From Clostridia bacterium (GTDB lineage Bacteria > Bacillota > Clostridia > TANB77 > CAG-465): a stretch of 64,000 bases of DNA. This document shows positions 6,663 to 46,362 of the stretch, one piece after another; position 1 is the stretch's first letter, and every line of letters starts with the position of its first letter. Position numbers and translations under genes: made by a program. Where the stretch lies: positions 67,817 through 131,816 of the forward strand of contig JAQUGQ010000001.1 in NCBI GenBank assembly GCA_028684095.1. The letters run 5' to 3'. The notes under the pieces are model-generated. The model was not told the origin of the DNA and did no database searches. It was given only the letters and a program-made list of their open reading frames with translations.

Positions 6663-6783
6663 TACTTCCATAAAATTCACTATAATATACTTATATTTCA
6701 CAAATTCTTTGTTTTTTACTTTTATGATTGTTATAAAAAGCAAAAAAGTACTACAAACTTAATTGTAATACTTTAATTTATAT

Positions 6784-8055
<1,272 letters not shown>

Positions 8056-9437: not shown

Positions 9438-10853
9438 ATGGGTACCAAGAGTAAATTTTTCGTTGACGTTATGTCTCTTAACGAAGAAGTAACTGGCTCT
9501 TGTCATTTATGTGTTGTGAAAATGCCAAATCATGAAACAATTAAATTCATTGTTGATTGTGGATTATTTCAAGAGAGTGAATACTACAAGTATAATTATA
9601 CACTTCCATTCAATCCTGATGAACTTAATTTTGCCTTAATTACACATAACCATACCGATCACATTGGTAGATTACCACTTCTTGCAAAACTAGGTTTCAG
9701 AAATGACATTTATACAACTGAGCTTACTCGGATTTTAATGTATGAATCATTAAAAGACTCTTGTAGCATACTATCACAGGTTGCTAAACGTAATAACACT
9801 AAACCTCTTTACGATGCAGATGATCTTAAAATAACATTAGGACTTGTAAAAGAAATTCCATATTATAAAGAAATACAAGTTCATACAAATGTTAAAGTAA
9901 GATTTCTTGATAACGGTCATCTCATAGGTGCTTCAATGATACTTGTTAAAATAACCTATCCAGGTGAAGAAGATATCAATATGCTATTTACAGGCGATTA
10001 TTCTAGCAACAGTACGTTTTTCAATGTCGGTCGTATATCCAAAAAAATATTTAACTTAAATCTTACTGTGATTCAAGAATCGACTTATGCTACGACTTAT
10101 ACCGATAGTATAGTAGAAATTTTCGAAGAAAATATTTTAAAAGCTGTAAGTGAAAATAAAACAATAATAGTACCAGTCTTTTCACTCAGTAGAGCTCAGG
10201 AAATCATGCTTAAAATCAAGAACATACAAGATTCTGGCAAATTAGATAAAACTATACCCGTATATTTAGATGGCAAATTGTCTATCAAGTATACAAATAT
10301 CTACAGCAAATATTCTTATATGTTTAAAGATACGGCTAAAAATTTTTTCCCTGAAAATTTCAGTTTTGTAGACAAAGAACTTAGAGCAGATTTAATAACT
10401 AATACCAAATGCAAGATTATTCTTACTTCAAGCGGAATGGGTTCCTATGGTCCTGCACCACTTTATATCAATAACTATATCTCTTCTGAAAATGCATTAA
10501 TTCATTTTATTGGATATCCTGCTAAGGGTACACTTTCAAGAAAATTAAAAAATGCAAAAAAAGATGATTTTGTGAAAATTGGTGGTGTTGTGAAACAAAA
10601 AAAATGTGATATTGAATATACCACCGAGTTTTCTTCACATGCTAAGTTAGATGAAATTTTGACTTTTTTGAAACAATTCAGTAATATTAATCTTCTTTTA
10701 GTTAATCATGGTGAACACGATTGCAAGGAAAACCTTGCAAAGCAAGTAATTGTTAATAATTTATGTAAAGATGTAGCCATTGAAAGTAGATCAACTTTTT
10801 ACAGAATCAACAACAATGGCTTATTAAAAGAACTTACAACTAAATTCTTATAG
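9438..10853 (+). CDS. MBL-fold metallo-hydrolase of the beta-CASP RNA-metabolising family
   Basis: HxHxDH motif 'THNHTDHIGRLP', then a beta-CASP-like middle region and a C-terminal 'SSHA' / 'VNHGE' motif. The start is moved to ATG 9438 (MGTKSKFF) because AAGGAG lies 8 nt upstream. The ORF-track start 9390 has no SD. The gene contains one in-frame CGG at 9729-9731. Confidence 0.8.
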   Translation: MGTKSKFFVDVMSLNEEVTGSCHLCVVKMPNHETIKFIVDCGLFQESEYYKYNYTLPFNPDELNFALITHNHTDHIGRLPLLAKLGFRNDIYTTELTRILMYESLKDSCSILSQVAKRNNTKPLYDADDLKITLGLVKEIPYYKEIQVHTNVKVRFLDNGHLIGASMILVKITYPGEEDINMLFTGDYSSNSTFFNVGRISKKIFNLNLTVIQESTYATTYTDSIVEIFEENILKAVSENKTIIVPVFSLSRAQEIMLKIKNIQDSGKLDKTIPVYLDGKLSIKYTNIYSKYSYMFKDTAKNFFPENFSFVDKELRADLITNTKCKIILTSSGMGSYGPAPLYINNYISSENALIHFIGYPAKGTLSRKLKNAKKDDFVKIGGVVKQKKCDIEYTTEFSSHAKLDEILTFLKQFSNINLLLVNHGEHDCKENLAKQVIVNNLCKDVAIESRSTFYRINNNGLLKELTTKFL

Positions 10854-21500: not shown

Positions 21501-22527
21501 ACTTGATTTTCTAACAGATATTTTTTCAGAACCTTCTATTGTATAATGCTCTTGATAATTTAACCTTGGTTCACTATTTAACCTGGTAGTTCCTGCAGGA
21601 ATTACCATATTTAATTCACTGTTTTCAAATCCAGCTAATACATTTCCATCTTCATCCACATGATTTATATATATTTCTCTTTTTGCGCTAACAACGGGTA
21701 TTTGAAGAATGTTGTCATATAAATTTGCAGCTGAAGCTCCTGGTTTTGCAGGACTTTGAGAATATGGCAACCAAGTTTCACGAACAGTAAATCCTCTTTG
21801 ATCACCATACCAATATCCAATTGTCTCTTGAAAAAAATCCCAAGCTGTATTCATATGATATCCATCAATTCTTTCATCTGTAGTATTAACTCCATTTGAA
21901 AATCTTACAAGATTATTAGTTCCATTCAACCCATATGTATTTATTATTTCAGCAATTGCACTAGCAGTAATTTCATAAATATCAATTCTTACACCATTAG
22001 CAGTTACCTTCCAACATAAAGTATTAATTTTATCAGAATTAATACCTTTATCCATTTGCAAATAATTTCCTGTATCATCAACTTGATTTCTTGGTATATT
22101 TACTGGATTACTTGTAAATCCAGTAAAATCATCAGTACCAATTGCTATAGGAACAGAATTAGTATCGTAATACACATTATTATTTGTACCACTTTCTACA
22201 AATCCATAGTTATATATAGAAAATACTTTATCCATAGGTGCAAATATATAATTATATGTCTCAAACGTTCTATCAGTTCCGCTTGTACTTGCATCTGATG
22301 CATCAGAAAGTACCCATCCATCATATTTATTTGTAGCAGGATCATTATATTTTGCTATAGAGCCGCGGAGAAGCTTGAACCATCTGTGTTATTACAGCAG
22401 CATAGCCAGTTCCATTCAAACTAAAATCTTGGCATTGATATACTAAACCATATCCATATACCTTTATGGCATTGATAATTATTGCAAGTATAAATAATGT
22501 TTTAAATATTTTTTTCATTATATTCAT
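18549..22527 (-). CDS. giant secreted protein of the filament locus (candidate tip adhesin), interrupted by a +1 frame break at CGG 22365-22363
   Basis: The ORF-track pieces are 22345-22527 (MNIMKKIFKTLFILAIIINAIKVYG..., a signal peptide whose ATG overlaps the TGA of the upstream gene) and 18549-22235 (1228 aa, no signal peptide, no SD before its ATG). The 18549 frame is open upstream to 22388. Skipping C 22365 joins ...VQASP to GSIAKYNDPATNKYDGWVLSDAS... The protein also has a PPPPP linker near residue 310 of the large piece. Confidence 0.7.
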
Positions 22528-23924
22528 TGTTTTTCCTCCTGTTTAAAATACGTTTCATTATCTATTTCTTTTGTTATTCCACACTTATCTGTATCTAATA
22601 TTGCCTTATATAACTCAACTTCTTTTAAATATATATTATCACTTCCTATTGCAGTTGATAAAAAATAATCAACTAGTAAATCATAACTATTTTGTGTATA
22701 TGTTTTCTTTAGCACATGTAAATAATCTAAATATATAAGATTTTCTTTTGTTTTCGATTGTTTGATTTCAAACGTCAGTTTTAATCTTGCTCTATACGAA
22801 AAACCATCATAATATATTATTGGAACTTGTAATTTAGACTTTCCTTCTATAACTATTTCATTATCTTTTACATGTTTAACATAACTTTTTATAGCAAATT
22901 CATTAGGAGCAAATATAAAATAAGATTTTATTTTTTGTTTTAATCCTTCCTCAGATATTGTTCTGTAATCTATATTCAAAATAGTATTAAAGAATTCTTC
23001 TGAAAATTTCTGGATTCGTGGATAATACTCTTTTTTATAAGCATATACATCCTTTGCATTCATTGCTCTTGGACTAAATTCAGATTCAAATGGTATCTCA
23101 TAAACAGATTTATCTACAGTTGTTATTGTGTATGGATATTGATCAGCATTTGATGGAACTTTTTCAGGATTGATATTTAGTTTATCTCCAGACAAAGTTA
23201 TAGTGTTATATTTTTCTACAAAATTAATAACTAATTCGTTTAACTGTCCTTTAAATATATTTTCATCACCTTTTAAATTATTAGACAATTTTGATATAAT
23301 TTCATTTGCTAACATATCTTTTATTGCTGTTTGTTGTTCTACTGTATACTTATCAATATCTTTTAACTTGGCTTCGGTATCTTTTACTGTTTGTTCAGTT
23401 AAAAATTTCAACTTACAATTTTCAAAATATGATATAACATCTATATACTTTACTTTATCGTTACAATTATTAATATTTATATCTTCTTTTGTTATTGCTG
23501 AATTTTTTGCAAATTCAACCCAAAGTGAATTTGTATATTCATTTTCTAATGTATCAATTCCAGATAATATCTCATTAGTATTCAGTACTGTACCTAATGC
23601 AATTTTTAATGCCTCTGATTTTGTTACAGACTCAGTAGTTTTTGCACTCCCGTTATCATACAGTTTTTCAAATCCATAAGTTTTCATTTTTTCTTCATAT
23701 TTTACATAAGGCTTATATTTCATATTACTTAAATATGTAATTAAAAATCCTGATACAGCTATTATTACCACAGTTAATATAACTAAAATTATACCCAACT
23801 TTATACGTTTTCTCTTAATTTTTTCTTTTATAGATGCATTATTTAGCTTTGCAGCATTTAACTTGTCCTTATTTGATAATTGTGATGATATCTCTTCATT
23901 CTTTTTTATATTTTTTTTAAACAC
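22524..23924 (-). CDS. single-pass membrane protein of the filament locus
   Basis: 466 aa. A basic N-terminus is followed by the TM helix LGIILVILTVVIIAVSGFLITYL. It starts at GTG with a GGAGTG SD. The stop overlaps the next start (ATGA). Confidence 0.6.
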   Translation of the reverse strand: MFKKNIKKNEEISSQLSNKDKLNAAKLNNASIKEKIKRKRIKLGIILVILTVVIIAVSGFLITYLSNMKYKPYVKYEEKMKTYGFEKLYDNGSAKTTESVTKSEALKIALGTVLNTNEILSGIDTLENEYTNSLWVEFAKNSAITKEDININNCNDKVKYIDVISYFENCKLKFLTEQTVKDTEAKLKDIDKYTVEQQTAIKDMLANEIISKLSNNLKGDENIFKGQLNELVINFVEKYNTITLSGDKLNINPEKVPSNADQYPYTITTVDKSVYEIPFESEFSPRAMNAKDVYAYKKEYYPRIQKFSEEFFNTILNIDYRTISEEGLKQKIKSYFIFAPNEFAIKSYVKHVKDNEIVIEGKSKLQVPIIYYDGFSYRARLKLTFEIKQSKTKENLIYLDYLHVLKKTYTQNSYDLLVDYFLSTAIGSDNIYLKEVELYKAILDTDKCGITKEIDNETYFKQEEKQ

Positions 23925-24073
23925 TTAATCAACACTCCATTCATTATAAAATATATACTTTTATTATTTGGTAACATTATATCACAAAAGTTTTTTTTAA
24001 AAAAGTCGTTATGAAAAAACTAGTAGAAAATTCAAAAAATATTTATTATCTTTAATACACAAATCATAATTAA

Positions 24074-25273
24074 TTATGGTCTACATAATGGACAAGGATA
24101 AAAGCCTTCAACAAATTCACCATCTGAAATAGCTGCTTTTAATGATGCTGCTTGCTGTTTAGTATTTACATATTGAGGAGTTATATTAACCTTATTAGAA
24201 ACAATATATTCAGGACATTTTATATCTTTGTGATATAGATTTCTGAAGTATTTAGAACCATTAGCCCCATTATTTGGTGTACTTACATAATATTTAGTTG
24301 AAAGTTCTAGACTTGCTCCACCGTATGCTTTATAGTTTAAATACTTATTTCCTACTGACATTCCTTGTACAAATGCTAACATTCCTATATCTTCTACATA
24401 TCTATACATTTCTTCTTTTGTAGTATAAGGAAATACAAATGTATACTTTACACCAGCTATATTTGCATAATGATTATTTTTATTCACTGCAAAATTTAAT
24501 TCTCTAGTTATAACATCTATTATAGTATCTTTCCTTTTACTTTTCAAAAGATTTATTATGTTAGTTTTTAATGACACATCAGTACTACCATCATATAAAT
24601 CCGAATTGTTGTTAGTATCACCTATATAAAAACCTTTTGCAGTATACGTTTTTGTAACATCATTCTTATTTCCTCTATGCACTATATAATCATCCATACT
24701 AAATTCTACTGTATGTAAAGAAAACCCAGGCTGATTTGATAATGCTTGTATTGTAGTTGGATCTGTTGTTATTTTAGTACCTCCAGAAGCATTATAATTT
24801 ATTCCATATGTAAATGAAAAATATCTTTTAGGTTTAACAACATGATTGGTTTCTTTTACAAGTTGATTTAATGAATTCAGTGTATCATATTCTTCCATTG
24901 ATGAAATATATACTCCGTTATAATCTATAACTGCTATTGCTGGCACAAAATATTTAAGATGTTTTTCAGCATCCTTATTTCCTTTAATTGAAAAATTATT
25001 GTATAATGAATTAAAAAAGGTATTTACTGCAACTTGTGCATTTACACTTACTTTATTATTTATTTCTCCTGAATATCCATAATCATTTTCTTTATCATCA
25101 TTTTCAACTTCTTTCATTCTCATAGCAGCATCTTCCAAAGCAGAGTTAATTATTTTTTGATAATATGATTCCTCTTCTATTGCCTTAATAGTAAAAGATA
25201 CATTTATATATACTATTATAATTATTGGAAGTACCACTCCTATAAATATAAGTGCAAAATCTGTTATTCTCAT
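24074..25273 (-). CDS. TadE-like pseudopilin-type protein
   Basis: 399 aa. N-terminus MRITDFALIFIGVVLPIIIIVYINVSF is a hydrophobic helix with an internal Pro, as in TadE-like N-termini. AAGGTG SD. C-terminal 'CPLCRP'. Confidence 0.5.
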   Translation of the reverse strand: MRITDFALIFIGVVLPIIIIVYINVSFTIKAIEEESYYQKIINSALEDAAMRMKEVENDDKENDYGYSGEINNKVSVNAQVAVNTFFNSLYNNFSIKGNKDAEKHLKYFVPAIAVIDYNGVYISSMEEYDTLNSLNQLVKETNHVVKPKRYFSFTYGINYNASGGTKITTDPTTIQALSNQPGFSLHTVEFSMDDYIVHRGNKNDVTKTYTAKGFYIGDTNNNSDLYDGSTDVSLKTNIINLLKSKRKDTIIDVITRELNFAVNKNNHYANIAGVKYTFVFPYTTKEEMYRYVEDIGMLAFVQGMSVGNKYLNYKAYGGASLELSTKYYVSTPNNGANGSKYFRNLYHKDIKCPEYIVSNKVNITPQYVNTKQQAASLKAAISDGEFVEGFYPCPLCRP

Positions 25274-25383
25274 TCATTCACCTTCTCTATATAATATTCT
25301 TTAATTAAAATTTACATTGTATGCTATATTTTATATATAAATTATTTAACAATCTTTTTAAAATTGTTTGTACCAATATTTAT

Positions 25384-26614
25384 CTACAAATTTTGTACTC
25401 TAAATGTTAAAGTTTTTGTTAGCGAGAAATGACCTTCAACGTCCTTTGCTGTTACCTTAACTGTTACATTTCCTTTAAATATTCCTGTAAAAGAATTTCC
25501 AGATTGAGTACGTGTACCAAAGTCATCTGTTATAATCCAATCATATCTATCTATAGCATTCGCTATCACCCCAGTATCACCTGAACCAGTTGGAAATTCT
25601 ATAGTAGATACAGCATTAAAAGTTATCGTTGTTGAACCTCCAAACACACTAATTATATCGCCTTGTAATACTGTAGGTGATGAATTTAATGTAGGTATTG
25701 AAGGTAAAGTATTTGCTGCATATATAGTTACAATTTTTGTATCAGAAATTTCTTCGTATTCATCTATTACATACACCTCTATTGAAATTGGTGTTCCTAT
25801 TGTAATATTTCTACTAATTGTGCCAACAAAATCAGATATATTAGTTAAATTTTCATTTGTTCCAGTTTGAATAATATTTCCGCCAGCATCCTTTATAGTC
25901 CAAACATACTTTGAAATCTTTTTCCACCAACCTGATGTTTTGGATGAAGCTCCAAAATTTGTATTATAGCCAGCTTCTAGTGTAATACTACTGCCAATAC
26001 CTATTCCATCTGCTGATATACTTGGAATTGATGGTTTAGTAGAAAAAGAATGTATTTCAGCTTCTACTTTATCCCATGAACTATTATTAACAACTCCTCC
26101 ATAATTTACTACTATTCTTTCTTTTTTAGATGTCGGTATTATAACCTGAAATAATGCTCCAGCCATTGTTATATTTTCATTTTTTAATTTAACATATATT
26201 TGATCATCTTTATTTAATAAATATGCTTTTTCTTTAAGTAATTTTCCATTTGTTGTTAATATATTAGTTGTATCCATTGCTTTAAAAATATCATCATTAT
26301 CCTCAAACTTATATTGTTCAATGTAATCATCGGCATCAACAGTATTCGCATCTAGAATCAAGATTTTTTTATATGCTTCTATATCTATATCATATAAATT
26401 GCCAGTACTATTCAATTGAATTATAAAATCATCATAAGTTGCTTGATCTATATATCCGTTTGTTTCTAACATCATCTACAAAACATGTAGTTGCCTTTAA
26501 AGCAAGTGTATACGACATATCATCTTGTCTTTCAAACAGATTATATAATGGAAATATTACTACTAATATTACAAATATCAGCATGGTAATTACAATACTT
26601 ACATTATCTTGCAT
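25384..26614 (-). CDS. TadE-like pseudopilin with PKD-like repeats, interrupted by a frame break at CGG 26458-26456
   Basis: The N-terminal piece (start set at ATG 26614, AAGGGGG SD) reads MQDNVSIVITMLIFVILVVIFPLYNLFERQDDMSYTLALKATTCFVDDVRNK. The downstream piece (no SD) continues GYIDQATYDDFIIQLNSTGNLYDIDIEAYK. The joined sequence parallels paralog 28188-28943 (..SYALAVKVTSELVENVRNNGYLSKKMYDDYLTKLSVTNNTYDIKMEHK). The C-terminal part has two 'Y.W.I.D..G' Ig/PKD-like repeats. Confidence 0.7.
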
Positions 26615-26704
26615 ATTTTCCCCCTTTTTCATTATAGTAAATATGTTGTTTTAGAATATTAAAAAAATTATTTATAAATATAAATATAATTATTATTATT
26701 ATTA

Positions 26705-27736
26705 TTAATTAATTACATTAAATAGAAATTCTTTTTCTGAAGTAGCATTTTCTGAATCAGTAACTTTTACTTTTACTTTATTTGCTCCTAATGGAAAAGA
26801 GAAGTTAAATACAGAACTGTCATTTATTTTTTGAATATCATTTACATACCATTCATATTTTGTTATATACCCACCATCATTCATAGATGTAGCATTAACC
26901 AAGAACTGAAGTGTTACTGGACCAGTTATACTTCCTCCTTCACTAACTAAACTATTTATTTCTACTAAATAATTTATAACTGGCTCATAATAATTTATTA
27001 TTATCTCTTTTACTGCAATAGCAGAAACTGTTCCAAAGCTATCCATAGCTGTTACAGATATTATATTTTTTCCACGTATAAATTTTAAATTATCTCCATA
27101 CTGAAATCCTAGTAATTGAGCAACTTGAGTAGTTATCGTCCAATCTGGTCGGCTATCATCATAATTTATTGTCCAGCAATAACTAACAATAGAATTCTCT
27201 GATGGCAAATTTGTACAATGAGCTGTAGCAGTAATATTAACTAATTGAACTGGTGTAGGTGGTATAGTCTGAGGAAAAACACTAGGATTAGTAGTTATAT
27301 TATCTATAATAGGCGGTTCGGCTTCATATACTGCCGTTACTAAATTTGGTCCAGCTGAAACCCATGCAGCTTCTATTTCTATTTTTTGACCAGTAACTGA
27401 TCTTTTATATGTTAATGTATACAGATCATTTAAATTTATGTTACTTACAGGTTCTATATTTGTAAAATTATATATTGAATCTAATGATGTACCATATTTA
27501 TCAGATGATTTATAGTTATAATAATATGTTAATAGTTCAGATCCTGTTATTGTATTATTTGTAGGAGCTGATGTTGTTTCTATAATACTATCTGATGAAA
27601 CCACCTTGCCATATTCATATACTTTATCAGCAAGTGTAATCGTAGATAAAAACAAATATATTGTAATACTCGTTGCTATTATAAATACAAACACATATAC
27701 ACTTGTAACTAAAATTTCATATGCTGAATTTTCCAT
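26705..27736 (-). CDS. pilin-like protein with PKD-like repeats
   Basis: 343 aa with an N-terminal hydrophobic helix (ILVTSVYVFVFIIATSITIYLF). Repeats 'YCWTINYDDSRPDW' and 'YEWYVNDIQK...VKVKVTDSENATSEKEF' resemble PKD/Ig-like domains. Confidence 0.55.
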   Translation of the reverse strand: MENSAYEILVTSVYVFVFIIATSITIYLFLSTITLADKVYEYGKVVSSDSIIETTSAPTNNTITGSELLTYYYNYKSSDKYGTSLDSIYNFTNIEPVSNINLNDLYTLTYKRSVTGQKIEIEAAWVSAGPNLVTAVYEAEPPIIDNITTNPSVFPQTIPPTPVQLVNITATAHCTNLPSENSIVSYCWTINYDDSRPDWTITTQVAQLLGFQYGDNLKFIRGKNIISVTAMDSFGTVSAIAVKEIIINYYEPVINYLVEINSLVSEGGSITGPVTLQFLVNATSMNDGGYITKYEWYVNDIQKINDSSVFNFSFPLGANKVKVKVTDSENATSEKEFLFNVIN

Positions 27737-27745
27737 ATATTATTC

Positions 27746-28153
27746 TCACTTTCTTTTAAAAAATACTGTTACATTTTTATTATTATCAAATTCATAACGT
27801 ATAACATATAACCTATTGATCTCTAATTTGCTAGTATGTCCAACATCACCACTATCCCAAAGGTCAAGCCAAGTTTTTGTATTTATAACATCTCCTGTTT
27901 CCTCTATTTTTACTAATATCATTGTACTATTCTTATATTTTTTTGCTATATTATATACTTCAAGTCCTGTAACAGTTGGCGTTTCATCTTTTGAAAACTC
28001 TACAAATAGATCTTTTATACTAATATCGGTTTTATATACATCTTGATATATAAAAGTTAATTGATTTAAAGTAAATAATATGGCTGATGTAATGGCTAAA
28101 GACACTGTTATACCTACCCCAATAATTAATGCCTTTGTTGGCAAAAAATCCAC
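27746..28153 (-). CDS. minor pilin-like protein
   Basis: 135 aa. N-terminus MDFLPTKA-LIIGVGITVSLAITSAILF shares the [KR][AS]-[IL].IG[VA][GS] motif with the major-pilin candidate. It starts at GTG with a GAGGGG SD. Confidence 0.55.
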   Translation of the reverse strand: MDFLPTKALIIGVGITVSLAITSAILFTLNQLTFIYQDVYKTDISIKDLFVEFSKDETPTVTGLEVYNIAKKYKNSTMILVKIEETGDVINTKTWLDLWDSGDVGHTSKLEINRLYVIRYEFDNNKNVTVFFKRK

Positions 28154-28187
28154 TTTAAATCACCCCTCACTTAATTAACAAAAATTG

Positions 28188-28943
28188 TTATTGCCAAGTC
28201 TTATATTTTTCATTTTGGATTGTACATCCATAATTCACATAAACTCTCGGCATAGGCTCTGATAGCATTCCAATTGTTAAGGCATTAAAGAAAAATTCTG
28301 CAGTAGTTGTATTTATATTCTTAACTCTTATTGTATATGAATCACCCTTATTCATCGCATAAATAGGACCTAATTTATCAAATATATATATATTTGGATT
28401 TAGAGGAATATCATATTCAAGAATAGCTCCATAACTAGCTGAAGTCATACCTATACGAACAAAATTTAAATTTAAAGGTGATTCAACTATATCTTTATTT
28501 AATGCATCTAAAATATTAACTTCTGTATATATTTCTTCATTTCTAGCATAAGATAAAACTAAATTTCCATAATTCACACTATTATATAATATGTTACCAG
28601 TTAGATATTGATTTTTATATATATCATATTCAAAAGTTTCTATTAATTTTGTATGTGCAACATCATCATAAGAACAAATAACAGGATTATATATATATGA
28701 TTTGTGTTCCATTTTAATATCATAAGTATTATTAGTTACTGATAACTTTGTTAAATAATCATCATACATTTTTTTTGACAAATAACCATTATTTCTCACG
28801 TTCTCAACTAATTCAGATGTTACTTTAACAGCTAATGCATATGAAACATCATCTTTTTTTTCAAATGCAATATACATAGGTAATAGAAAAAATATTATTA
28901 CAGCTAACATTCCAGAAAATACTCTTTGTAAATTTTCTTCCAT
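28188..28943 (-). CDS. TadE-like pseudopilin-type protein
   Basis: 251 aa. MEENLQRVFSGMLAVIIFFLLPMYIAFEKKDDVSYALAV. It is a paralog of 25384-26614. GGGAGG SD. Confidence 0.55.
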   Translation of the reverse strand: MEENLQRVFSGMLAVIIFFLLPMYIAFEKKDDVSYALAVKVTSELVENVRNNGYLSKKMYDDYLTKLSVTNNTYDIKMEHKSYIYNPVICSYDDVAHTKLIETFEYDIYKNQYLTGNILYNSVNYGNLVLSYARNEEIYTEVNILDALNKDIVESPLNLNFVRIGMTSASYGAILEYDIPLNPNIYIFDKLGPIYAMNKGDSYTIRVKNINTTTAEFFFNALTIGMLSEPMPRVYVNYGCTIQNEKYKTWQ

Positions 28944-28972
28944 AATTCCTCCCTAATCTTATTTATATCCCA

Positions 28973-29404
28973 TTAAGATATTAATTGAAATGCATAATTG
29001 TTTCCATTTCTTATTATTCTAAATTTTTGATTTGGCATTATCGTTTTCATAATTGGAATATATACAACATTTTCAGAAGAATTTATTTTTGCAATACCAG
29101 GAGTTATAAGATTTAATGATGCATCAATTCTATAAGCATAATAATTATCAATAGTTATTGTTACATCAATGCTGTCATAAAAATACTGTAATACATTTCT
29201 AAGCTCAGCACCAGTTGCTTCTGAACTATATAATATTTTTTTAATATCTTCCCTGTATTGCTGTTCTATGTCAATACCTGTTCCAACTTCAGCAACCATA
29301 CTTTTTGCTGTATTATAATACATCATTATTACTGTGACAGTTGCAAGGGTAATAAGTATACTAGCACCTATAGTAATAGATCTTATCATAATATCATCTT
29401 CCAT
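28973..29404 (-). CDS. minor pilin-like protein
   Basis: The start is set at ATG 29404 (GAGGGGG SD) rather than 29455. N-terminus MEDDIMIRS-ITIGASILITLATVTVIMMYY carries the same motif as the major pilin. Confidence 0.55.
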   Translation of the reverse strand: MEDDIMIRSITIGASILITLATVTVIMMYYNTAKSMVAEVGTGIDIEQQYREDIKKILYSSEATGAELRNVLQYFYDSIDVTITIDNYYAYRIDASLNLITPGIAKINSSENVVYIPIMKTIMPNQKFRIIRNGNNYAFQLIS

Positions 29405-29595
29405 TGCTATTCCCCCTCTATAAAGATATATTCTTTTGAATAAAAGCAGTATCATTAATCATCTACTATTTTATATCCAATATTTATTATTCGAGTTGTG
29501 AATTATTCACTTAATTGTTTTTTAATTATATATATCATTATCTATTCTTTATTTTGGTATAACCGTTATAATTTATATTATAAATTACACTCTTG

Positions 29596-29645
29596 GCTAG
29601 ATATTTCTATTAAAAACTCTTAATTTTTTAATAGAAATATCTAGC
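29596..29645 (-). terminator. 21-bp perfect hairpin downstream of the major-pilin gene (terminator/attenuator or RNA-stabilising stem)
   Basis: gctagatatttctattaaaaa (29596-29616) and tttttaatagaaatatctagc (29625-29645) are exact reverse complements, with an 8-nt loop. The hairpin sits in the 254-bp gap after the pilin stop. Confidence 0.55.
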
Positions 29646-29709
29646 AATGTATATAAATATACATTGTAGATATTCGGACTATATTATTATTAATTATATA
29701 TATTAAATA

Positions 29710-38637: not shown

Positions 38638-39498
38638 TTAATTATCTAGATACTTTAATACAAATTTAGATGCTTTTTCTAGTTTTAGTAGTATTTCTTT
38701 GTAATTACCAGAATTAATATCATCCGAAGTCACAAACTTCAAATTAAATAAATCTTTAAATACTATGCTATATCCTCTTAAAAATATATTATTACGATGT
38801 ACAGCATTAACAAATTCTTGAATTGATTTCAAAGAAAGTTTGTCATTAGATTTAATCTTATTCAAATCCCCACCTTTGTAATTTTGATGTAATATTTTAA
38901 CTAATTCTTGAAGAATGAGGTTTTGTAATTTAAGAATATCACTTTTTATTTCTATGATATCATAGGGCCCATACTTCTTTTGTGTTACTTCATCAAACTC
39001 CTCAAACTTCACATTTTTTTGAAATTCTTCCAAAGAAAACAATTCTTTTGATACTTTCTTTAACTCTATATTCATCCTTTCTAAAAATGTTTTTTTACCA
39101 TTATAATATTTATTTGAAGACAATACTGTTACAATTGCTTTTCTTACATCTTCAAATAAATACTTCTCCCAATACATATTGTAATTTTTTTCATATGCAG
39201 TTACTATGGCAGTCATTATATTATAAACAATGTGATTTTGAACTTGTTTAGAGCCTAACAATTCCATAACATAATTATACTCTCTAACAAATACTTTAGG
39301 TGAAAATTTTACATTTTCTATATCAATACGTTTAGCCCTTACAAATATAAAATCCTTGTAGTATATTTCTTGACTTTTTCCACATTTAATACAATATGCC
39401 TTAAAAAATACATCGTAGACATCTGTCGTCCTTTCTTTTAATAGTAAAATATTTCCAGTATTCCGATCTAAACTATTTTCAGAACAATTACATTCCAT
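38638..39498 (-). CDS. hypothetical protein with an N-terminal Cys-rich (zinc-ribbon-like) motif, paralog A
   Basis: 286 aa. MECNCSENSLDRNTGNILLL...CIKCGKSQEIY. GGAGG SD. It contains an in-frame CGG (39465-39463) at the conserved 'LDR'. Confidence 0.6.
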   Translation of the reverse strand: MECNCSENSLDRNTGNILLLKERTTDVYDVFFKAYCIKCGKSQEIYYKDFIFVRAKRIDIENVKFSPKVFVREYNYVMELLGSKQVQNHIVYNIMTAIVTAYEKNYNMYWEKYLFEDVRKAIVTVLSSNKYYNGKKTFLERMNIELKKVSKELFSLEEFQKNVKFEEFDEVTQKKYGPYDIIEIKSDILKLQNLILQELVKILHQNYKGGDLNKIKSNDKLSLKSIQEFVNAVHRNNIFLRGYSIVFKDLFNLKFVTSDDINSGNYKEILLKLEKASKFVLKYLDN

Positions 39499-39883: not shown

Positions 39884-40819
39884 TTAATTATCTAGATACC
39901 TTGATATAAACTCATTTACTTCTCTCAATTTTTCTAGTTTTTCTTTGTAATTCAAAGCATTAATGTCCTTTGAATTACAAAATTCAAAATCAAATATCTC
40001 TTTGAACACTATGCTATATCCTTTTAAAAATATATTATCACGACATCCATCATTAACAAATTTCTGAATTGATTTAAGAGAAATTTTACCCTTAATTTTT
40101 AATTCAGAATAATTTTTAAATTTGTAGTTTTGACATAATATTTTTACCATTTTCTGAAGAATAAGTTTCTGTAAATAAAAAATGTTACTTCTAATTTCTT
40201 GCCCCGTTCTTAAATATATCTTTTTTTGCAAGTATTTTTCATAATTACTTGTTTCTCTGATGCATTTAATTTGTACGACACCTGCTGGCCCATACTTCTT
40301 CTGTGATTCCTGATCAAAATCTTCAGATTTCCTATTTTTCAGAAATTCTTCTAAGAAAAAAGTTTCTTTAACCGTTATTTTTAACTCTTTTTTCATGGCT
40401 GCTAGGAATGCTTTACTACAATTATCGTATTTCTTCAAAGATAATACCTTAACAATTGCTTGTCTTACATTTTCAAACAAATAATCTTCCCAATACATAT
40501 AGTAATTGTTTCTATATGCATCTATTATGGCAACCATTATATCATAGATATTATCATCTTGTATTTGTGATGAACCTTTCAATTGCATAACATACTTATA
40601 TTCTTCCACAAATACTTTATAGGGAAAATTCGTACTTATTACACTGATTTTCTTAGCAGGCACATCACTTAATTCCCTATTATATATTTCTTCGCTGCAT
40701 CCACATTTAATACAACTCACAAAAATATAATAATCATATGTATAGGTTTTTCCTTCACCTAATAATAGAATATTACCTCTACCCCGATCTAAACAATTTT
40801 GAGAACAACTACATTCCAT
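39884..40819 (-). CDS. hypothetical protein with an N-terminal Cys-rich (zinc-ribbon-like) motif, paralog B
   Basis: 311 aa. MECSCSQNCLDRGRGNILLL...CIKCGCSEEIY. It is collinear with paralog A apart from an insertion of about 25 aa. In-frame CGG at 40786-40784. Confidence 0.6.
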   Translation of the reverse strand: MECSCSQNCLDRGRGNILLLGEGKTYTYDYYIFVSCIKCGCSEEIYNRELSDVPAKKISVISTNFPYKVFVEEYKYVMQLKGSSQIQDDNIYDIMVAIIDAYRNNYYMYWEDYLFENVRQAIVKVLSLKKYDNCSKAFLAAMKKELKITVKETFFLEEFLKNRKSEDFDQESQKKYGPAGVVQIKCIRETSNYEKYLQKKIYLRTGQEIRSNIFYLQKLILQKMVKILCQNYKFKNYSELKIKGKISLKSIQKFVNDGCRDNIFLKGYSIVFKEIFDFEFCNSKDINALNYKEKLEKLREVNEFISRYLDN

Positions 40820-40933: not shown

Positions 40934-43057
40934 TTATTTTAAATACATTACTACCCTAAATCCAACATTATTATAACAATACCCATCATTATCAGCTAAA
41001 GCACGATAGCTTGCTGGCCCATAAATTCCATTTCCATTATAATCTATAGAACGATAATAAGATTGATTTGAATTTAATGAATTGATTTCATTACTCCATT
41101 CAGCTAAATTACCAGCTAAATCATAAATGTTCTTTGATTTCCAATTTTCATTAGAACCAGATAATTTTAAATTACCAAGTTTATAATTATCAGTATTAGC
41201 AGGAAAAGTTGAATTATTATAATTTCCCCAAGATATACTATTATGTACATCTACATTACTAACTTCTAACCATCTCATCATAGTATCCCACTGAGTTCCT
41301 GTAACAAGTCCAGTTGCAATTGATGTACTATATTTATATTTTTGTGACATTTCTTCTGAATATTTTTTTGCATCAGAGTATTTTATAAAATTCCACAAAT
41401 ATCCATTATGTTCTTGATCTTTAATATTTTTCCAATCTAAGGTTTGTATGCAATTTGTGCTTGGTTTACTCGATACTCTTATATCACCATTATTATAATC
41501 AAAAGCTGATTCATAACGTGCAATATAAAAGCCACCATATTTTTTAATTTGATCAGCCTCACTTATTCCAGATGGTAAACTGTCATTTATAGTATTGTTA
41601 TATAATTCTCCTGATTTACACCATTTTTTATAAGATACTAATGTACCATCAAGACTTTGATCATAATCGCCATCTAATTTAACACCAGCATTTACTGGTA
41701 TCCAAACAAATTGATTACCATTTACATCTTTAATAACCAATCCATCATCTATTACATTTTCACCATTAACATTTGATACAGTAAATTCCTGAGGTATTGG
41801 TGCTTCATCTCTATTTGCATCTACGTATACATATCCACCACTTGGTGCAGTTATTATATTCTGCACCCTTTGAGTTGTAATATACTGTTTGTATTCCTTA
41901 TCATATTGATCTCCTATGCCATCTTTCAATGGATCATAATAATGTAGATATGAAAAGGATACTATTTTTTCAGCATATAATGCAGAAATTGTAAGTTGTG
42001 ATATATATCTTGATAAAGAAGCTGAGATATAATTCTCTTCTTCTTTATAGAAATTCTCTGCATTTATCCAAAATTTAACATTTTGATTTTCATTTACTGC
42101 AAGTTTTATTGCTTTTATATATTCTACTACTTTCTGAACTGAGTATGTAGAAGTGCCCAATCCATCTTGAAGACATAAAATATCTCCTAATCTAAAATGA
42201 GTTTTTCTCATTATATTAGTCCATTGCTCTTGTACTCTTTGAACACTTGCATTTTCTGATATACTTATAAATGGTGAAATCATTAATGGTAATGTTGCAT
42301 CAAGAGTAGTAAAATGATCTAAATTTATATTCATCATATATGACCAATTATCTTCATAATTATTTGAAGTAGTATACATTTCCCATGGCCAATACCATCC
42401 TGAAAATGCATTCGGATATTTTGCTTTATAATTATTATATATTTCATCAGCTATAGTATTAGTAAGATTTGCATTGTTTGTGCACCAAGTTTTATTAGTA
42501 AATTCATTATTCCACCAATCATTACCTAAACCAAGTCCTATAAATACTTTCATATTATTATTTTCAGCAGCTTCTAGTAAATTACCTAACATATTTTTAG
42601 TAACTTCATAATCACTTTGACTAAAGCTAGAATCTAAATTATCCACATTGTTTACAAGAGTACTTTCATATCCTAAATATTTTATTTTACTATTTTTAAA
42701 TTCGGAAGTCCATTGCAATATAACAGTATTTATACCTGCTCTCTTTAATATTTTAAGATGATTACTCCATTCATTAATTGTAAATCTATCGCAATACCAA
42801 GGTTGTACAATATCTCCAGATATAACAGGCTCAGATATACCTTTCCCAATGTATAAATCTAATTTTGCAGTATTTGCTACTTCAATAAGTTCCTTTTCTC
42901 TTTCAGTTATACTATTTTCTTTAACCGCTGGATTTGTTCTAGAAATAATACCGTTATTACCCATCAGTGTTATTATTACAGCACTAGCTATTATAATTAT
43001 GATAACTATTGTTATTATTAACACTAGTAAAAAAAATTTTTTTCTTCCATTAATCAT
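40934..43057 (-). CDS. membrane-anchored two-domain protein: glycoside-hydrolase-like (DUF4434-like) domain plus FGE-sulfatase/SUMF1-type domain
   Basis: The start is set at ATG 43057 (GGAGG SD). N-terminus MINGRKKFFLLVLIITIVIIIIIASAVIITLMGNNG. The middle region 'FTINEWSNHLKILKRAGINTVILQWT..' is TIM-barrel-like. The C-terminal ~260 aa are collinear with the 43436/44872 paralogs (GNQFVWIPV, GGFYIARYES, TGTQWDTMMRW, NIYDLAGNLAEWS, GFRVV). Confidence 0.65.
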   Translation of the reverse strand: MINGRKKFFLLVLIITIVIIIIIASAVIITLMGNNGIISRTNPAVKENSITEREKELIEVANTAKLDLYIGKGISEPVISGDIVQPWYCDRFTINEWSNHLKILKRAGINTVILQWTSEFKNSKIKYLGYESTLVNNVDNLDSSFSQSDYEVTKNMLGNLLEAAENNNMKVFIGLGLGNDWWNNEFTNKTWCTNNANLTNTIADEIYNNYKAKYPNAFSGWYWPWEMYTTSNNYEDNWSYMMNINLDHFTTLDATLPLMISPFISISENASVQRVQEQWTNIMRKTHFRLGDILCLQDGLGTSTYSVQKVVEYIKAIKLAVNENQNVKFWINAENFYKEEENYISASLSRYISQLTISALYAEKIVSFSYLHYYDPLKDGIGDQYDKEYKQYITTQRVQNIITAPSGGYVYVDANRDEAPIPQEFTVSNVNGENVIDDGLVIKDVNGNQFVWIPVNAGVKLDGDYDQSLDGTLVSYKKWCKSGELYNNTINDSLPSGISEADQIKKYGGFYIARYESAFDYNNGDIRVSSKPSTNCIQTLDWKNIKDQEHNGYLWNFIKYSDAKKYSEEMSQKYKYSTSIATGLVTGTQWDTMMRWLEVSNVDVHNSISWGNYNNSTFPANTDNYKLGNLKLSGSNENWKSKNIYDLAGNLAEWSNEINSLNSNQSYYRSIDYNGNGIYGPASYRALADNDGYCYNNVGFRVVMYLK

Positions 43058-43167
43058 TTTTAAAACCTCCAACATATATAGTAAAATTCTAGCATATTGA
43101 TAAATTTTAATCAAGAGATTTTTAGATTTTTTTGTTAATTATTGTATTTTTTCAATATTAGAAATAA

Positions 43168-43201
43168 AAAATTGTACTAATTAAAAAATCAGTACAATTT
43201 T
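43168..43201 (-). terminator. hairpin downstream of 43436-44716
   Basis: Stem aaaattgtact/agtacaatttt with a 12-nt loop. Confidence 0.4.
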
Positions 43202-43435
43202 AGTTATTTCTAACAAATTCTAGTTTTTTAGACACCAACTATTGACATTGAGCTGTGAAAAACAGTTATGTAGCCTAAATATCTACAATTCAAATTTTTC
43301 ACCCTATCAGGGTACAGAAAGCTATACTAATTTTAAAACCCGTTCATTTGTTAATTTATCTTATTTTTATAATATTTATTTATATCTTAATTTTCTTGTT
43401 TTGTACCTTTTCTAATATAGTTTCAATAGTCAGTG

Positions 43436-44716
43436 CTACAATATATAAAGTGATGTACGGAACGAGAGGTCATAGCTGGCATTATTGGCATAGTTATTGT
43501 AACGACAAGCAGCTGAATCAGTGATACCACTTTGGCAGTAACTACCTCCACGATAGACACAGTAAGAACTATATATTTCATTTGTCCATTCCCATGTATT
43601 TCCTGCCAAATCGTATATGTTTTTGGCTTTCCAATTTTCACTAAATCCTGATATTTGTAATGTTCCATTTCCGACATTTGCTGGAGATGTTGAATTAATG
43701 TGATTACCCCATATTCTACTATCTGTTACACTTGGTCCTGAATTATTACTAATCCATCTCATTGCTGTATCCCACTGTGTTCCAGTCATTAGATTTGTTC
43801 CTACTTTTGATGTATCGTATCCATAACTTGTATCCATGTTTTCTGCATATGATTTTGCATCTGTATAGTCTACAAAATTCCACACATATCCGTCATATGT
43901 TGCATTTCTTGTTGATGACCAATCTATTAAGTTTGTCTTATTTGTACTAACTTTACTTGCTACTCTTATGTTTCCTCCATTATAATCAAACATTGCTTCA
44001 TATCTTGCTATATAAAATCCACCGTAAGAATTTATTTGATTTATTTCAATCATTCCTGATGGTAATGTGTCATCTGTTGTATCTGCATATGTAGATCCTG
44101 TTGTACACCATTTTATATATGTTACATCTGTTCCATCTACTGGTACCCATACAAACTGATTACCACTTACATCTTCTATTACTATTCCTTCATTCCAATC
44201 TGTTGGCCATACTTTTCCATCATTTATTGCTTTAAATCCTGTTGGCACAATTGGATTTTGATATGTTGCAGCTTTTCCATTTACTGTTGTGTTTTCTACT
44301 GCTATTACATTTACTCCTAATATACTTGTTATTCCAATTTCTGTAAGATAATCCTTTTCTATTTGATTTGTACCTACATATACTAATTTACTTTTTTGTA
44401 TTTCAAATTTCGCCCCATCCACTTCGGACATACTTGTTATATATTCCTTTATTGTTCCATCACCAGTACCAGTACCATCCCATACATCTACATAAAATGT
44501 TGCTGAATCAAAAGAATTATCTTTTAAATATTCATTTGTTATAGCCATTGCAAGTTCTGAATTATATCCCGCTACATTTGATTTAAACGTTGCTTCATTT
44601 GCTGATTCTATTGGATTGTTATTTGCTAAACTTAATATTACTGCTCCCGCTAATATTATTATAACTATTATTGTTATAACTAATACAATTAATGATATAC
44701 CTTTTTTTCTTTTCAC
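43436..44716 (-). CDS. pilin-like N-terminal anchor fused to an FGE-sulfatase/SUMF1-type domain (tandem copy 1)
   Basis: 426 aa. MKRKKGISLIVLVITIIVIIILAGAVILSLANNNP..., 'NIYDLAGNTWEWTNE'. The first 125 aa are identical to copy 2. The C-terminal end has diverged and lacks the terminal GFR motif. Confidence 0.7.
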   Translation of the reverse strand: MKRKKGISLIVLVITIIVIIILAGAVILSLANNNPIESANEATFKSNVAGYNSELAMAITNEYLKDNSFDSATFYVDVWDGTGTGDGTIKEYITSMSEVDGAKFEIQKSKLVYVGTNQIEKDYLTEIGITSILGVNVIAVENTTVNGKAATYQNPIVPTGFKAINDGKVWPTDWNEGIVIEDVSGNQFVWVPVDGTDVTYIKWCTTGSTYADTTDDTLPSGMIEINQINSYGGFYIARYEAMFDYNGGNIRVASKVSTNKTNLIDWSSTRNATYDGYVWNFVDYTDAKSYAENMDTSYGYDTSKVGTNLMTGTQWDTAMRWISNNSGPSVTDSRIWGNHINSTSPANVGNGTLQISGFSENWKAKNIYDLAGNTWEWTNEIYSSYCVYRGGSYCQSGITDSAACRYNNYANNASYDLSFRTSLYIL

Positions 44717-44871
44717 TTAAAATACCCCCATTTTTATTTTGAATGAATATTATTATTATAAATAAATTAATTAACATTTTAATTATATTATATATAATTT
44801 TTTTGTCAATGATTTTTATATCTTAATTTTCTTGTTTTGTGCCTTTTGTAATATAGTTTCAATGGTCAGTG

Positions 44872-46155
44872 CTACAATACATAAAGCCCTACACGAAAAC
44901 CTACACCGTAGTAGTTGGCATCAGTAATATGGTTGTTTTCACGACAAGCAGCTGGGTAAGTACTACCACTATAGTGGTAGTAGCCTCCACGATTGACACG
45001 GTAAGAACTATAGATTTCATTTGTCCATTCCCATATATTTCCTGATAAATCATATATATTTTTAGCTTTCCAATTTTCACTAAATCCTGATACTTGTATA
45101 CTTCCATATCCTGATACATTAGCTGGGTCTATTGAATTATTATAATTTCCCCATGTTCTACTATCTGTTACACTTATACTTGCATTTTGTATCCATTTCA
45201 TTGCTGTATCCCACTGTGTTCCTGTTACAAGTCCACTTTTAACTTTTAATGCATCATAACTATAGCTTGCTGCCATATTTTCAGAATATGATTTAGCATC
45301 TATATAATTAATATAATTCCATAAATATCCGTTATATGTTGCATTTCTTGTTGATGACCAATCTGTTAAATCTGTCTTATTTGTACTAACTTTACTTGCT
45401 ACTCTTATGTTTCCTCCATTATAATCAAACATTGATTCATACCTTGCTATATAAAATCCACCGTAAGAATTTATTTGATTTATTTCAATCATTCCTGATG
45501 GTAATGTGTCATCTGTTGTATCTGCATATGTAGATCCTGTTGTACACCATTTTGTATATGTTACATTTGTTCCATCTACTGGTACCCATACAAACTGATT
45601 ACCACTTACATCTTCTATTACTAGTCCTTCATTCCAATTTGTTGGCCATACTGTTCCATCATTTATTGCTTTAAATCCTGTTGGCACGATTGGATTTTGA
45701 TATGTTGCAGCTTTTCCATTTACTGTTGTGTTTTCTACTGCTATTACATTTACTCCTAATATAATTGTTATTCCCATTTCTGTAAGATAATCCTTTTCTA
45801 TTTGATTTGTACCTACATATACTAATTTACTTTTTTGTATTTCAAATTTCGCCCCATCCACTTCAGACATACTTGTTATATATTCCTTTATTGTTCCATC
45901 ACCAGTACCAGTACCATCCCATACATCTACATAAAATGTTGCTGAATCAAAAGAATTATCTTTTAAATATTCATTTGTTATAGCCATTGCAAGTTCTGAA
46001 TTATATCCCGCTACATTTGATTTAAACGTTGCTTCATTTGCTGATTCTATTGGATTGTTATTTGCTAAACTTAATATTACTGCTCCCGCTAATATTATTA
46101 TAACTATTATTGTTATAACTAATACAATTAATGATATACCTTTTTTTCTTTTCAC
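44872..46155 (-). CDS. pilin-like N-terminal anchor fused to an FGE-sulfatase/SUMF1-type domain (tandem copy 2)
   Basis: 427 aa with the same N-terminus as copy 1. 'NIYDLSGNIWEWTNE' and a terminal 'GVGFRVGLYVL'. Confidence 0.7.
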   Translation of the reverse strand: MKRKKGISLIVLVITIIVIIILAGAVILSLANNNPIESANEATFKSNVAGYNSELAMAITNEYLKDNSFDSATFYVDVWDGTGTGDGTIKEYITSMSEVDGAKFEIQKSKLVYVGTNQIEKDYLTEMGITIILGVNVIAVENTTVNGKAATYQNPIVPTGFKAINDGTVWPTNWNEGLVIEDVSGNQFVWVPVDGTNVTYTKWCTTGSTYADTTDDTLPSGMIEINQINSYGGFYIARYESMFDYNGGNIRVASKVSTNKTDLTDWSSTRNATYNGYLWNYINYIDAKSYSENMAASYSYDALKVKSGLVTGTQWDTAMKWIQNASISVTDSRTWGNYNNSIDPANVSGYGSIQVSGFSENWKAKNIYDLSGNIWEWTNEIYSSYRVNRGGYYHYSGSTYPAACRENNHITDANYYGVGFRVGLYVL

Positions 46156-46362
46156 TTAAAATACCCCCATTTTTATTTTGAATGAATATTATTATTATAA
46201 ATAAATTAATTAACATTTTAATTATATTATATATAATTTTTTTGTCAATGATTTTTATATAAAATATATACTAATAATTAAATTATTGTATTTTATTTAA
46301 AATATTTAAAAGCATATAACAATATGTTTTTTGAACCGAGCATTTATCCTTTGTTTTATCTT

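Follow-up and report, generated by a model that had tools for sequence, protein, structure and literature searches.

Modular type IV pilins are represented by PilB and PilC of Streptococcus sanguinis, which carry a vWA module and a ConA-like lectin module, respectively (Raynaud et al. 2021, PMC8179133; Shahin et al. 2023, PMC9934059). The census in PMC8179133 was built on IPR012902, the class III signal-peptide signature, and GspK was treated there as a modular minor pilin with a proposed tip position. In Bacteroides, the tip adhesins of type V pili are diversified by diversity-generating retroelements (DGRs) (Macadangdang et al., bioRxiv 10.1101/2024.11.15.621889). Here, we analyze four genes, designated p1 to p4, on a 64,000-nucleotide stretch of chromosomal DNA (the window) with a GC content of approximately 26% from an uncultured Clostridia bacterium. 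We consider it fairly likely that their products are modular surface proteins resembling type IV pilins, without Glu5 and with hypervariable lectin modules. The N-terminus of p2, p3, and p4 recurs in the small pilins of a type IV pilus operon of the same assembly, and the C-terminal domain, a ligand-binding module, ends in p2 and p3 in a region with the footprint of DGR-type variation.

Layout of the four genes

The public record used for the window is assembly GCA_028704735.1, contig JAQWEW010000002.1, positions 67817 to 131816, and all comparisons within the same metagenome-assembled genome (MAG) rest on GCA_028704735.1. Gene p3 (positions 44872 to 46155, minus strand, 427 aa) combines an N-terminal pilin-type module with a C-terminal domain of C-type-lectin/FGE fold. 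Its tandem paralog p2 (43436 to 44716, minus strand, 426 aa) has the same architecture, and p4 (3986 to 5476, minus strand, 496 aa) carries the same N-terminal module in front of a more divergent FGE/lectin-fold domain, which represents a second subfamily. According to the public record, p1 (40934 to 43057, minus strand) encodes 707 aa, the listing of open reading frames (ORFs) extending it to position 43114. It features a variant hydrophobic anchor without Gly at position −1, a DUF4434 domain (approximately 41930 to 42823; 155 bits with Pfam), and a C-terminal FGE/lectin-fold domain with a tail resembling a variable region (VR). This domain can be aligned with those of p2 and p3, and the overall architecture of p1 recurs in the homologous loci L024, L028, and L017.

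The N-termini of p2, p3, and p4 read M-K-x-x-K-GISLIVLVITIIVIIILAGAVILSLANNNPI, the 31 residues of GISLIVLVITIIVIIILAGAVILSLANNNPI being the same in all three proteins. The leader follows the pattern MK(R/E)(K/N)K-G-ISLIVLVITIIVIIILAG, i.e., a short basic stretch that ends in Gly and is followed by hydrophobic residues. In a direct-repeat scan, the DNA encoding these N-termini formed a 61-nucleotide (nt) repeat family (D8) with 95% identity. The similarity of p4 to p2/p3 covers 300 nt at the N-terminal end, part of which lies upstream of the coding sequence (79% identity, repeat D1), whereas p2 and p3 are 96 to 100% identical over the first approximately 780 nt of coding sequence plus approximately 90 nt upstream and show mosaic divergence thereafter. 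The matching 5′ halves of p2 and p3 within positions 43436 to 46275 suggest gene conversion. A close paralog of p4 is located at positions 6260 to 7798 of locus L163 of the same MAG.

The initial annotation, made from the DNA of the window, had reported four paralogs with a prepilin-like leader that lacks Glu at +5 and with FGE-type motifs in the C-terminal domain. The minus strand does contain the four ORFs, and the leader is found in p2, p3, and p4 but not in p1, where Lys takes the place of Gly and DUF4434 is inserted in the architecture. The absence of Glu at +5, where p2 to p4 have Val, was confirmed, and the pilin-type character of the N-termini was supported by the 31 of 31 residues shared with pilins of the operon described below. 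The quoted motifs GNQFVWVP, GGFYIARYE, TGTQWD, NIYDLAGN.WEWT, and [GS]FR were likewise confirmed.

A type IV pilus operon of the same assembly encodes pilins with the same N-terminus

Two short proteins with the shared N-terminus, P0450 (121 aa) and P0451 (123 aa), are encoded on contig JAQWEW010000001.1 (locus L164, positions 9587 to 9952 and 10001 to 10372) inside a canonical type IV pilus operon. These candidate major pilins, which have Val at +5, are identical to p2 to p4 at 31 of 31 residues from Gly to NNNPI, with 82 to 88 of 93 nt matching at the DNA level. The operon comprises, in this order, genes for PilM/PilN-like and PilO-like proteins, two small membrane proteins, the two pilins, an ORF with an A24_N_bact domain, two minor-pilin-like proteins, PilB, a PilT-like ATPase, and PilC. 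PilB was recognized by Pfam T2SSE with 320 bits and additionally carries MshEN, and PilC matches T2SSF. The synteny extends to three related metagenome contigs (L165 to L167), which have two to four small pilin genes (119 to 137 aa) at the same position. Pilins of these syntenic contigs (P0407, P0409, P0415, and P0419) bear this N-terminus, as do P0435 and P0445. One minor-pilin-like protein of the operon possesses Glu5 (KSG/VFIIE). Candidate major pilins without Glu5 are probably unusual for bacterial type IV pili.

Because the 31 residues are identical to those of pilins within a PilB/PilT/PilC operon, the sequence comparison supports the view that the N-terminus of the window proteins is of pilin type and that the matching machine is the one encoded by the pilus operon of JAQWEW010000001.1.

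Two further features of the operon were recorded. The A24_N_bact ORF (L164, 10502 to 11350) leads, in the same reading frame, into a stretch that resembles a pilin and possesses Glu5 (KSG/VFIIEIALALV); equivalents of this ORF are located at 10885 to 11718 in L165 and at 10530 to 11336 in L167, and in two relatives it is called as a gene of 268 to 277 aa. The PilO-like protein (L164, 7824 to 8627) contains a long (TTPTT)n repeat.

The pilin-type N-terminal module

The N-terminal module of p3 (residues 1 to 135; positions 45751 to 46155, minus strand) consists of the leader MKRKK-G, a hydrophobic helix, a continuous α1 helix, and a small head. A search with this 135-residue module yielded 2816 clusters (50% identity) at an E value of ≤1e-3, always at the protein N-terminus and in proteins of 124 to 1236 aa, a recurrence not attributable to chance. 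The hydrophobic helix is its most conserved part, with an entropy of 0.2 to 0.4 bits versus approximately 1.4 to 2 bits elsewhere in the protein, and G, S, and T within it are invariant across thousands of clusters. AlphaFold2 predicted a helix of approximately 57 residues (residues 9 to 32 and 35 to 65, with a kink at NNP) followed by a small α/β head, with a predicted local distance difference test (pLDDT) value of 92 for the module alone. The small head, proposed to be of pilin type, spans residues 36 to 135, approximately, and is followed by a linker. In the predicted structure, the protein thus has the build of a modular pilin: a pilin module, a linker, and a functional module whose use is not confined to pilus biology. 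The profile of the N-terminal module aligns with that of Geobacter PilA-N, with the Gly residues in register (KKG/FTLIEL versus KKG/ISLIVL; E = 0.0056). Without the operon pilins, such resemblances would carry little weight.

The same carrier is found in front of very different domains. Among 110 other proteins with this N-terminal module, 22 carry a ConA-like lectin domain and 14 a BspA-LRR domain; further modules are LRR_8, RCC1, sialidase-N, MucBP, F5/8C, and cadherin-like domains. The stand-alone modules P0222 and P0385 are both located outside of pilus operons. Cleavage by signal peptidase I after ...LSLA was considered and is disfavored, positions −3 and −1 being unconserved in the family and the helix of the model being continuous at this site.

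The C-terminal domain has a lectin fold and is a binding module

AlphaFold2 modeling of p3 with 66 homologues resulted in a pLDDT of 91.5 and a predicted TM score of 0.81. When the model was compared with the Protein Data Bank (PDB) using Foldseek, the top match was TvpA (2Y3C), the DGR variable protein of Treponema denticola, followed by FGEs, EgtB/OvoA, and the Thermus DGR variable protein TaqVP; Mtd was listed, too. At the sequence level, the best PDB match was the noncatalytic SUMF2. No Cys or His residue is invariant among the 66 homologues, and there is not even a nearly invariant Cys. The Cys residues of p2 and p3 fall into hypervariable columns (column 393, Y44 F9 C6; column 404, Y25 C10), and where FGEs have their active-site loop, the family has its hypervariable region of DGR type. 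Because no Cys or His is invariant and the active-site-loop equivalent is hypervariable, the C-terminal domain is a ligand-binding module of the FGE-sulfatase/C-type-lectin fold rather than an FGE, which answers the question raised in the initial annotation of whether catalytic residues are retained. The public label "SUMF1/EgtB/PvdO family nonheme iron enzyme" is misleading for these proteins.

The variable region in p2 and p3

Sequence entropy within the family peaks in the last approximately 35 residues (384 to 418 of p3), which are built on the scaffold RV.RGG....SG...PAA.R...........GFR. The VR equivalent of p3 (residues 384 to 419; positions 44899 to 45006, minus strand) is of DGR type and corresponds in position to the VR of confirmed DGR targets; that of p2 comprises residues 383 to 418 (positions 43463 to 43570, minus strand). 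Of the 36 hypervariable columns of the family (entropy of ≥2.8 bits), 18 fall into the VR, where S, Y, N, G, and D prevail. The residues K, E, Q, M, and W, which adenine mutagenesis of AAY codons cannot yield, make up 4.7% in these columns versus 16.7% in the other hypervariable columns (p = 1e-21); the set of residues in the VR agrees with such mutagenesis.

Codon usage in the VR also differs from that of the remaining gene. C is found at the third position of 13 of 36 VR codons in p3 versus 10 of 391 codons elsewhere in the gene (p = 7e-10), and the corresponding values for p2 are 12 of 36 versus 17 of 390 (p = 4e-7); genome-wide, the share of third-position C is 4 to 6%. The anomaly was not seen in p1. 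In p3 and three paralogs from L163, the VR scaffold is identical at the nonvariable positions, and VR variation falls on the first, second, and third codon positions in 18, 16, and 8 columns, respectively, the reverse of the remainder of the gene (p = 0.007). Between p2 and p3, nucleotide identity amounts to approximately 60% in the VR, 83 to 86% in windows over the 3′ end and flank, and 96 to 100% in the 5′ half. Judged by these sequence features, p2 and p3 bear the footprint of a DGR-type variable region.

A hairpin downstream of the VR, as present in the Bordetella phage DGR, was also looked for: the 3′ flank is conserved in a subset of the paralogs, and no convincing stem was visible by eye. 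The conserved VR core had no exact match in viral contigs. A phage origin was rejected, just two viral contigs encoding relatives, both without the N-terminal module.

Homologues in other genomes are targets of DGRs

A full-length protein search retrieved 5167 proteins at an E value of ≤1e-5. For the analysis of gene neighborhoods, homologues were scanned in one genome per GTDB species, which gave more than 555 encoding stretches, of which 77 loci were kept; nearly all of these stem from MAGs of uncultured Clostridia of gut or anaerobic-digester type. In 7 of the 77 loci, a reverse transcriptase (RT) gene (IGNYTSQ...YMDD) is located directly downstream of the family gene, and the template repeat (TR) is placed after the RT gene in these loci. 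The mismatches between TR and VR fall almost without exception on adenines of the TR: 13/13 in L031, 20/20 in L061, 18/18 in L075, 19/19 in L077, 15/16 in L033, and 17/19 in L079. A cognate TR together with an RT was found for the homologues in L031, L033, L061, L074, L075, L077, and L079. The small gene between target and RT encodes Avd (72.8 bits with Pfam bAvd; 78.6 bits with NCBIfam DivGenRetAVD, cut-off of 80). When flanking ORFs of the 77 loci were clustered, Avd (10 loci) and RT (8 loci) were the sole recurrent family-specific neighbors, and no recurring pilus or secretion gene was found. The DGR targets in L031, L033, and L061 bear a pilin-like N-terminus of the window type. At the level of their sequences, these homologues are proven to be bona fide DGR targets.

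Copy number and genomic distribution of the family

In the DNA of this MAG, 17 copies were seen directly, to which the window contributes 4, L081 a tandem array of 4, L162 another 3, and L163 the remaining 6, and the protein search named further PHD15_ loci on other contigs. The family in this genome comprises at least 21 copies and probably approximately 29. Family genes sit among housekeeping genes such as spoIIIA, ligA, topA, and PFOR; the window itself also encodes Obg, TrpRS/TyrRS, SecA, a sporulation-type sigma factor, a PBP5-type carboxypeptidase, and an SNF2 helicase.

The neighboring Tad-like locus

A Tad-like filament locus (22524 to 36988, minus strand) encodes a CpaB-like SAF-domain protein, two ParA-like proteins, a CpaF-like ATPase, TadB/C-like and TadE-like proteins, and pilin-like proteins. 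Its ATPase (32402 to 34312) is closest to CpaF (E = 1.7e-7) and reaches merely 15.8 bits with Pfam T2SSE. The initial annotation had placed the family at the flanks of this locus, had proposed that the neighboring machine handles its members, and had called for a test of co-occurrence across genomes. In physical terms the flanking is correct, p1 to p3 being located 3.9 to 9 kb from the CpaB-like gene, which ends at 36988, and p4 17 kb past the other end; the arrangement is not conserved in relatives, however. Only one of the 77 family loci (L043) adjoins such a Tad-like locus. Conversely, in 80 metagenome loci with ATPases of 58 to 94% identity, the p3-type N-terminal module was present in none, a motif-bearing ORF in one, and an FGE domain in one, and a blast search with the N-terminal module gave no match. 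In L082, whose ATPase is 94% identical, two Cys-rich genes are kept and the FGE genes are absent. Moreover, the pilin/pseudopilin candidates of the locus start with MDNAQKAIMIGVGLF..., MEENLQRVFSGMLAV, and similar sequences, unlike p2 to p4. Neither a conserved co-location nor the handling by the neighboring machine was supported, and this locus is probably not the partner of the family.

Two fusions connect the fold to other filament proteins. In L043 (9425 to 10834), an FGE/lectin-fold domain is fused to the TadE-like protein of a Tad-like locus, and in L098 (14489 to 16180) to a pilin-like protein starting with MEDNATRAIIIGVGLFV, which likewise belongs to the Tad-like locus; filament subunits of at least two kinds have therefore acquired the lectin-fold domain.

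Despite its strong divergence, the Tad-like locus is conserved, with its synteny, in at least 68 of the 80 metagenome contigs, many of which are labeled human gut; a prepilin peptidase gene was not seen in it. Between this locus and p1, two tandem Cys-rich paralogs (38638 to 39498 and 39884 to 40819, minus strand; MEC.CS..C...) are located, for which neither Pfam nor NCBIfam gave a match; a pair similar to these genes lies upstream of the ATPase gene in L082. A 1228-aa ORF (18549 to 22235, minus strand) abuts the locus and has no Pfam match and no homologue in the 80 ATPase loci. Elsewhere in the window, we noted three tandem 40-nt units (51185 to 51304), each with the palindrome TTTTGCGGTTAAAACCGTAAAA, in the intergenic region upstream of a CpsB/CapC-type gene; a solitary 838-aa protein with TraG/VirD4-type coupling-protein domains encoded beside SecA (12467 to 14983, plus strand); and a gene pair labeled AbiEii and DUF6577 by Pfam (54785 to 56652, minus strand), suggestive of a toxin-antitoxin or abortive-infection module.

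Weighing of alternative explanations

Observations of two kinds speak against reading these genes as Glu5-less modular pilins with hypervariable lectin modules, one kind concerning the N-terminus and the other the retroelement. With respect to the N-terminus, the +5 residue is Val in p2 to p4 and Ala in GITLIAL-type relatives, with no Glu. PF07963 (N_methyl) and TIGR02532 did not match the N-terminal module of the window proteins at an E value of ≤1, and the homologue from L061 scored 13.8 bits with the pilin N_methyl model (cut-off of 21.2). Matches of the N-terminus to pilins in hidden Markov model comparisons were no stronger than those to the FliL anchor, and Foldseek of the N-terminal module alone against the PDB returned no significant match and no pilin. 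Gene p1 opens with MINGRKKFFLLVLIITIVIIIIIASAV / MINGRKKFFLLVLIITIV..., with Lys at the Gly position of p2 to p4. A prepilin-peptidase motif was found neither in the window nor in the 77 genome-collection loci nor in L001/L002, and the A24_N_bact ORF of the type IV pilus operon (108 bits) contains no Peptidase_A24 catalytic domain. The main rival of the modular-pilin reading is an uncleaved signal anchor that shares its ancestry with pilins, which would make the products type II membrane proteins and filament-independent, membrane-tethered variable lectins, as assumed for most cellular DGR targets. The absence of Glu5 and of an N_methyl match, the Gly-less p1, the failure to find a catalytic prepilin peptidase (window, 77 loci, and type IV pilus operon), and the spread of family genes among housekeeping genes all agree with it, as does the finding that most cellular DGR targets are N-terminally membrane-anchored binders (Roux et al. 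2021, PMC8144416). We nevertheless regard it as unlikely: identity of the helix to that of pilins inside a PilB/PilT/PilC operon is not explained by an anchor alone, the helix is conserved well beyond anchoring needs, it keeps the type IV pilin register G-[FI]-[TS]-L-I-x-L, and in the model it runs on as a long α1 helix with a small head. The proposal that the neighboring Tad-like machine handles the window proteins as cargo or displays them as surface subunits, akin to the archaeal bindosome, appears very improbable. It has in its favor the physical closeness in the window, the lack of Glu5 in the pilins of that locus as well, and the L043 and L098 fusions, from which it follows that a Tad-like filament can display a lectin-fold domain. 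Those fusions have Tad-type N-termini, however, and not the KKGISLIV type, and the N-termini of the window proteins differ from those of the locus pilins and equal those of the type IV pilus operon; in addition, the adjacency is unconserved in both directions, and a relative as close as L082 lacks family genes.

With respect to the retroelement, none of the window ORFs contains an RT motif, no Avd or TR was found there, a Pfam scan of 37 of the larger window ORFs gave no reverse transcriptase, and the direct-repeat scan detected no further copy of the 3′ ends in the window. A further approximately 80 kb of this MAG (L081, L162, and L163) contained no RT, Avd, or TR; a blastn search with the p3 VR against these loci matched solely the VRs of other paralogs, and a homologue search with the RT of L031 gave nothing traceable to this MAG. 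A second patch of p2/p3 divergence is located outside the VR (nt 810 to 1050); recombination among paralogs therefore also contributes. These results are what would be expected if the domain were a relic, descended from DGR targets in a family that now diversifies solely by duplication and recombination of its approximately 20 to 30 paralogs, without an active retroelement. The lack of RT and TR in the approximately 140 kb of the MAG examined, the negative RT homologue search, the mosaic of p2 and p3 beyond the VR, and the inconspicuous third positions of p1 lend this view some weight, and we rate it as possible, if on balance somewhat unlikely. Against it, the C-rich third positions in the VRs of p2 and p3 should decay quickly in a genome with so little third-position C unless they are re-templated, and the VR scaffold is near-identical at nonvariable positions in four paralogs. 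DGR activity in this genome may still be current. That the proteins are catalytic FGE/SUMF1/EgtB-type enzymes anchored outside the cell, as the public annotation implies, is scarcely credible. Pfam PF03781 (cut-off of 23.3) is just exceeded by p2 (28.3 bits) and p3 (25.3 bits), p4 falling below it with 18.4 bits and p1 giving no match at an E value of ≤0.1, so that its domain is seen solely via alignment to the paralogs; the Foldseek matches to FGEs and EgtB, with E values of 1e-5 to 1e-4, likewise favor an enzyme. The 66 homologues, however, lack a conserved Cys pair or His, variability within the family is greatest in the active-site-loop segment, the top fold match is the DGR variable protein TvpA, and homologues in other genomes are proven DGR targets.

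A proposed model for display and variation

In the modular-pilin reading, the class-III-type N-terminus common to these proteins would bring them to the PilB/PilT/PilC machinery, which would use them as minor or tip subunits, and their lectin-fold module would recognize an external ligand. Binding specificity would have three sources of variation: the number of paralogs, recombination among them, and mutagenic retrohoming, directed at adenines, into the C-terminal VR. Cleavage by a prepilin peptidase, incorporation into the pilus, and the nature of the ligand are what we infer for this model. Glu5 could be dispensable for a tip subunit because there is no subunit above it, and its absence is compatible with a tip position, as in GspK; the small pilins of the operon lack Glu5 as well, however.

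A farther-reaching version is tentative and, in our estimation, more doubtful than the modular-pilin reading itself. The type IV pilus of this lineage, with candidate major pilins lacking Glu5, might serve as a display platform for 20 to 30 interchangeable tip pilins with DGR-rewritten lectin domains, so that one filament would present its adhesins as a hypervariable repertoire of combinatorial kind. ConA-lectin, LRR, RCC1, and other modules use this carrier as well, and standard pilin signatures do not detect these proteins.

Pilin-like N-termini without Glu5 form a very large class (the 2816 clusters mentioned above) that escapes PF07963 and TIGR02532, and counts of pilins or modular pilins built on those signatures would miss such proteins in gut and environmental Clostridia. 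No description of this N-terminal family was found in the literature, and the N-terminal peptide strings had no match there. The genes join modular pilins with DGR-driven hypervariation of C-type lectins, a link that, for type IV pili, we did not find in the literature searched; its sole trace was a "GspG-type pilin" domain mentioned in passing among DGR targets (PMC11661182). If display on a pilus is true, these proteins offer a route to studying how one pilus accommodates a wide choice of tip subunits and by what means assembly proceeds independently of Glu5 in bacteria.

Comparison with known systems

The substrates of the Sulfolobus bindosome, to which the initial annotation had likened the family, are non-pilin binding proteins with a pilin-type signal and without Glu5, and the analogy is reasonable in this respect. 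The bindosome is archaeal and has other machinery and domains, however, and the bacterial modular pilins of PMC8179133 are a closer precedent. These resemble the window proteins in the sequence of N-terminal pilin module, linker, and bulky ligand-binding module, in the grafting of one carrier module onto many adhesin or lectin domains, and in a Gram-positive host with PilB/PilT/PilC machinery. Unlike them, the window proteins have Val in place of Glu5 and do not match the IPR012902/N_methyl signature, their family amounts to at least 20 copies per genome that are scattered outside the pilus operon, and the effector is a C-type lectin of FGE fold with a DGR-type VR, on a protein whose incorporation into a pilus is proposed here. 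The census in PMC8179133 would probably not have counted them because PF07963 and TIGR02532 are unmatched.

In type II secretion, the tip minor pilin GspK lacks Glu5, too, and so do minor pilins related to it. GspK shares with the putative modular pilins of the window the class III signal, an extra domain, and, as proposed for the window proteins, a position at the filament tip, whereas there is no sequence relationship between them, and here the candidate major pilins of the operon lack Glu5 as well.

With regard to the variable domain, TvpA (2Y3C) and TaqVP (5VF4) have the same fold, with the VR at the extreme C-terminus ending in ...GFR, and homologues of the window proteins are accompanied by a cognate TR, RT, and Avd. 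TvpA is a lipoprotein. The window proteins differ from both in the pilin-type N-terminus and the very large family of paralogs. The type V tip adhesins of Bacteroides belong to a strand-exchange polymer in another phylum, whereas the Clostridia proteins would be displayed by means of a type IV pilin-like helix; the concept of a hypervariable C-type-lectin adhesin on a pilus of gut bacteria is nonetheless common to both, and the type V pili of Bacteroides are the nearest precedent for a pilus adhesin varied by a DGR.

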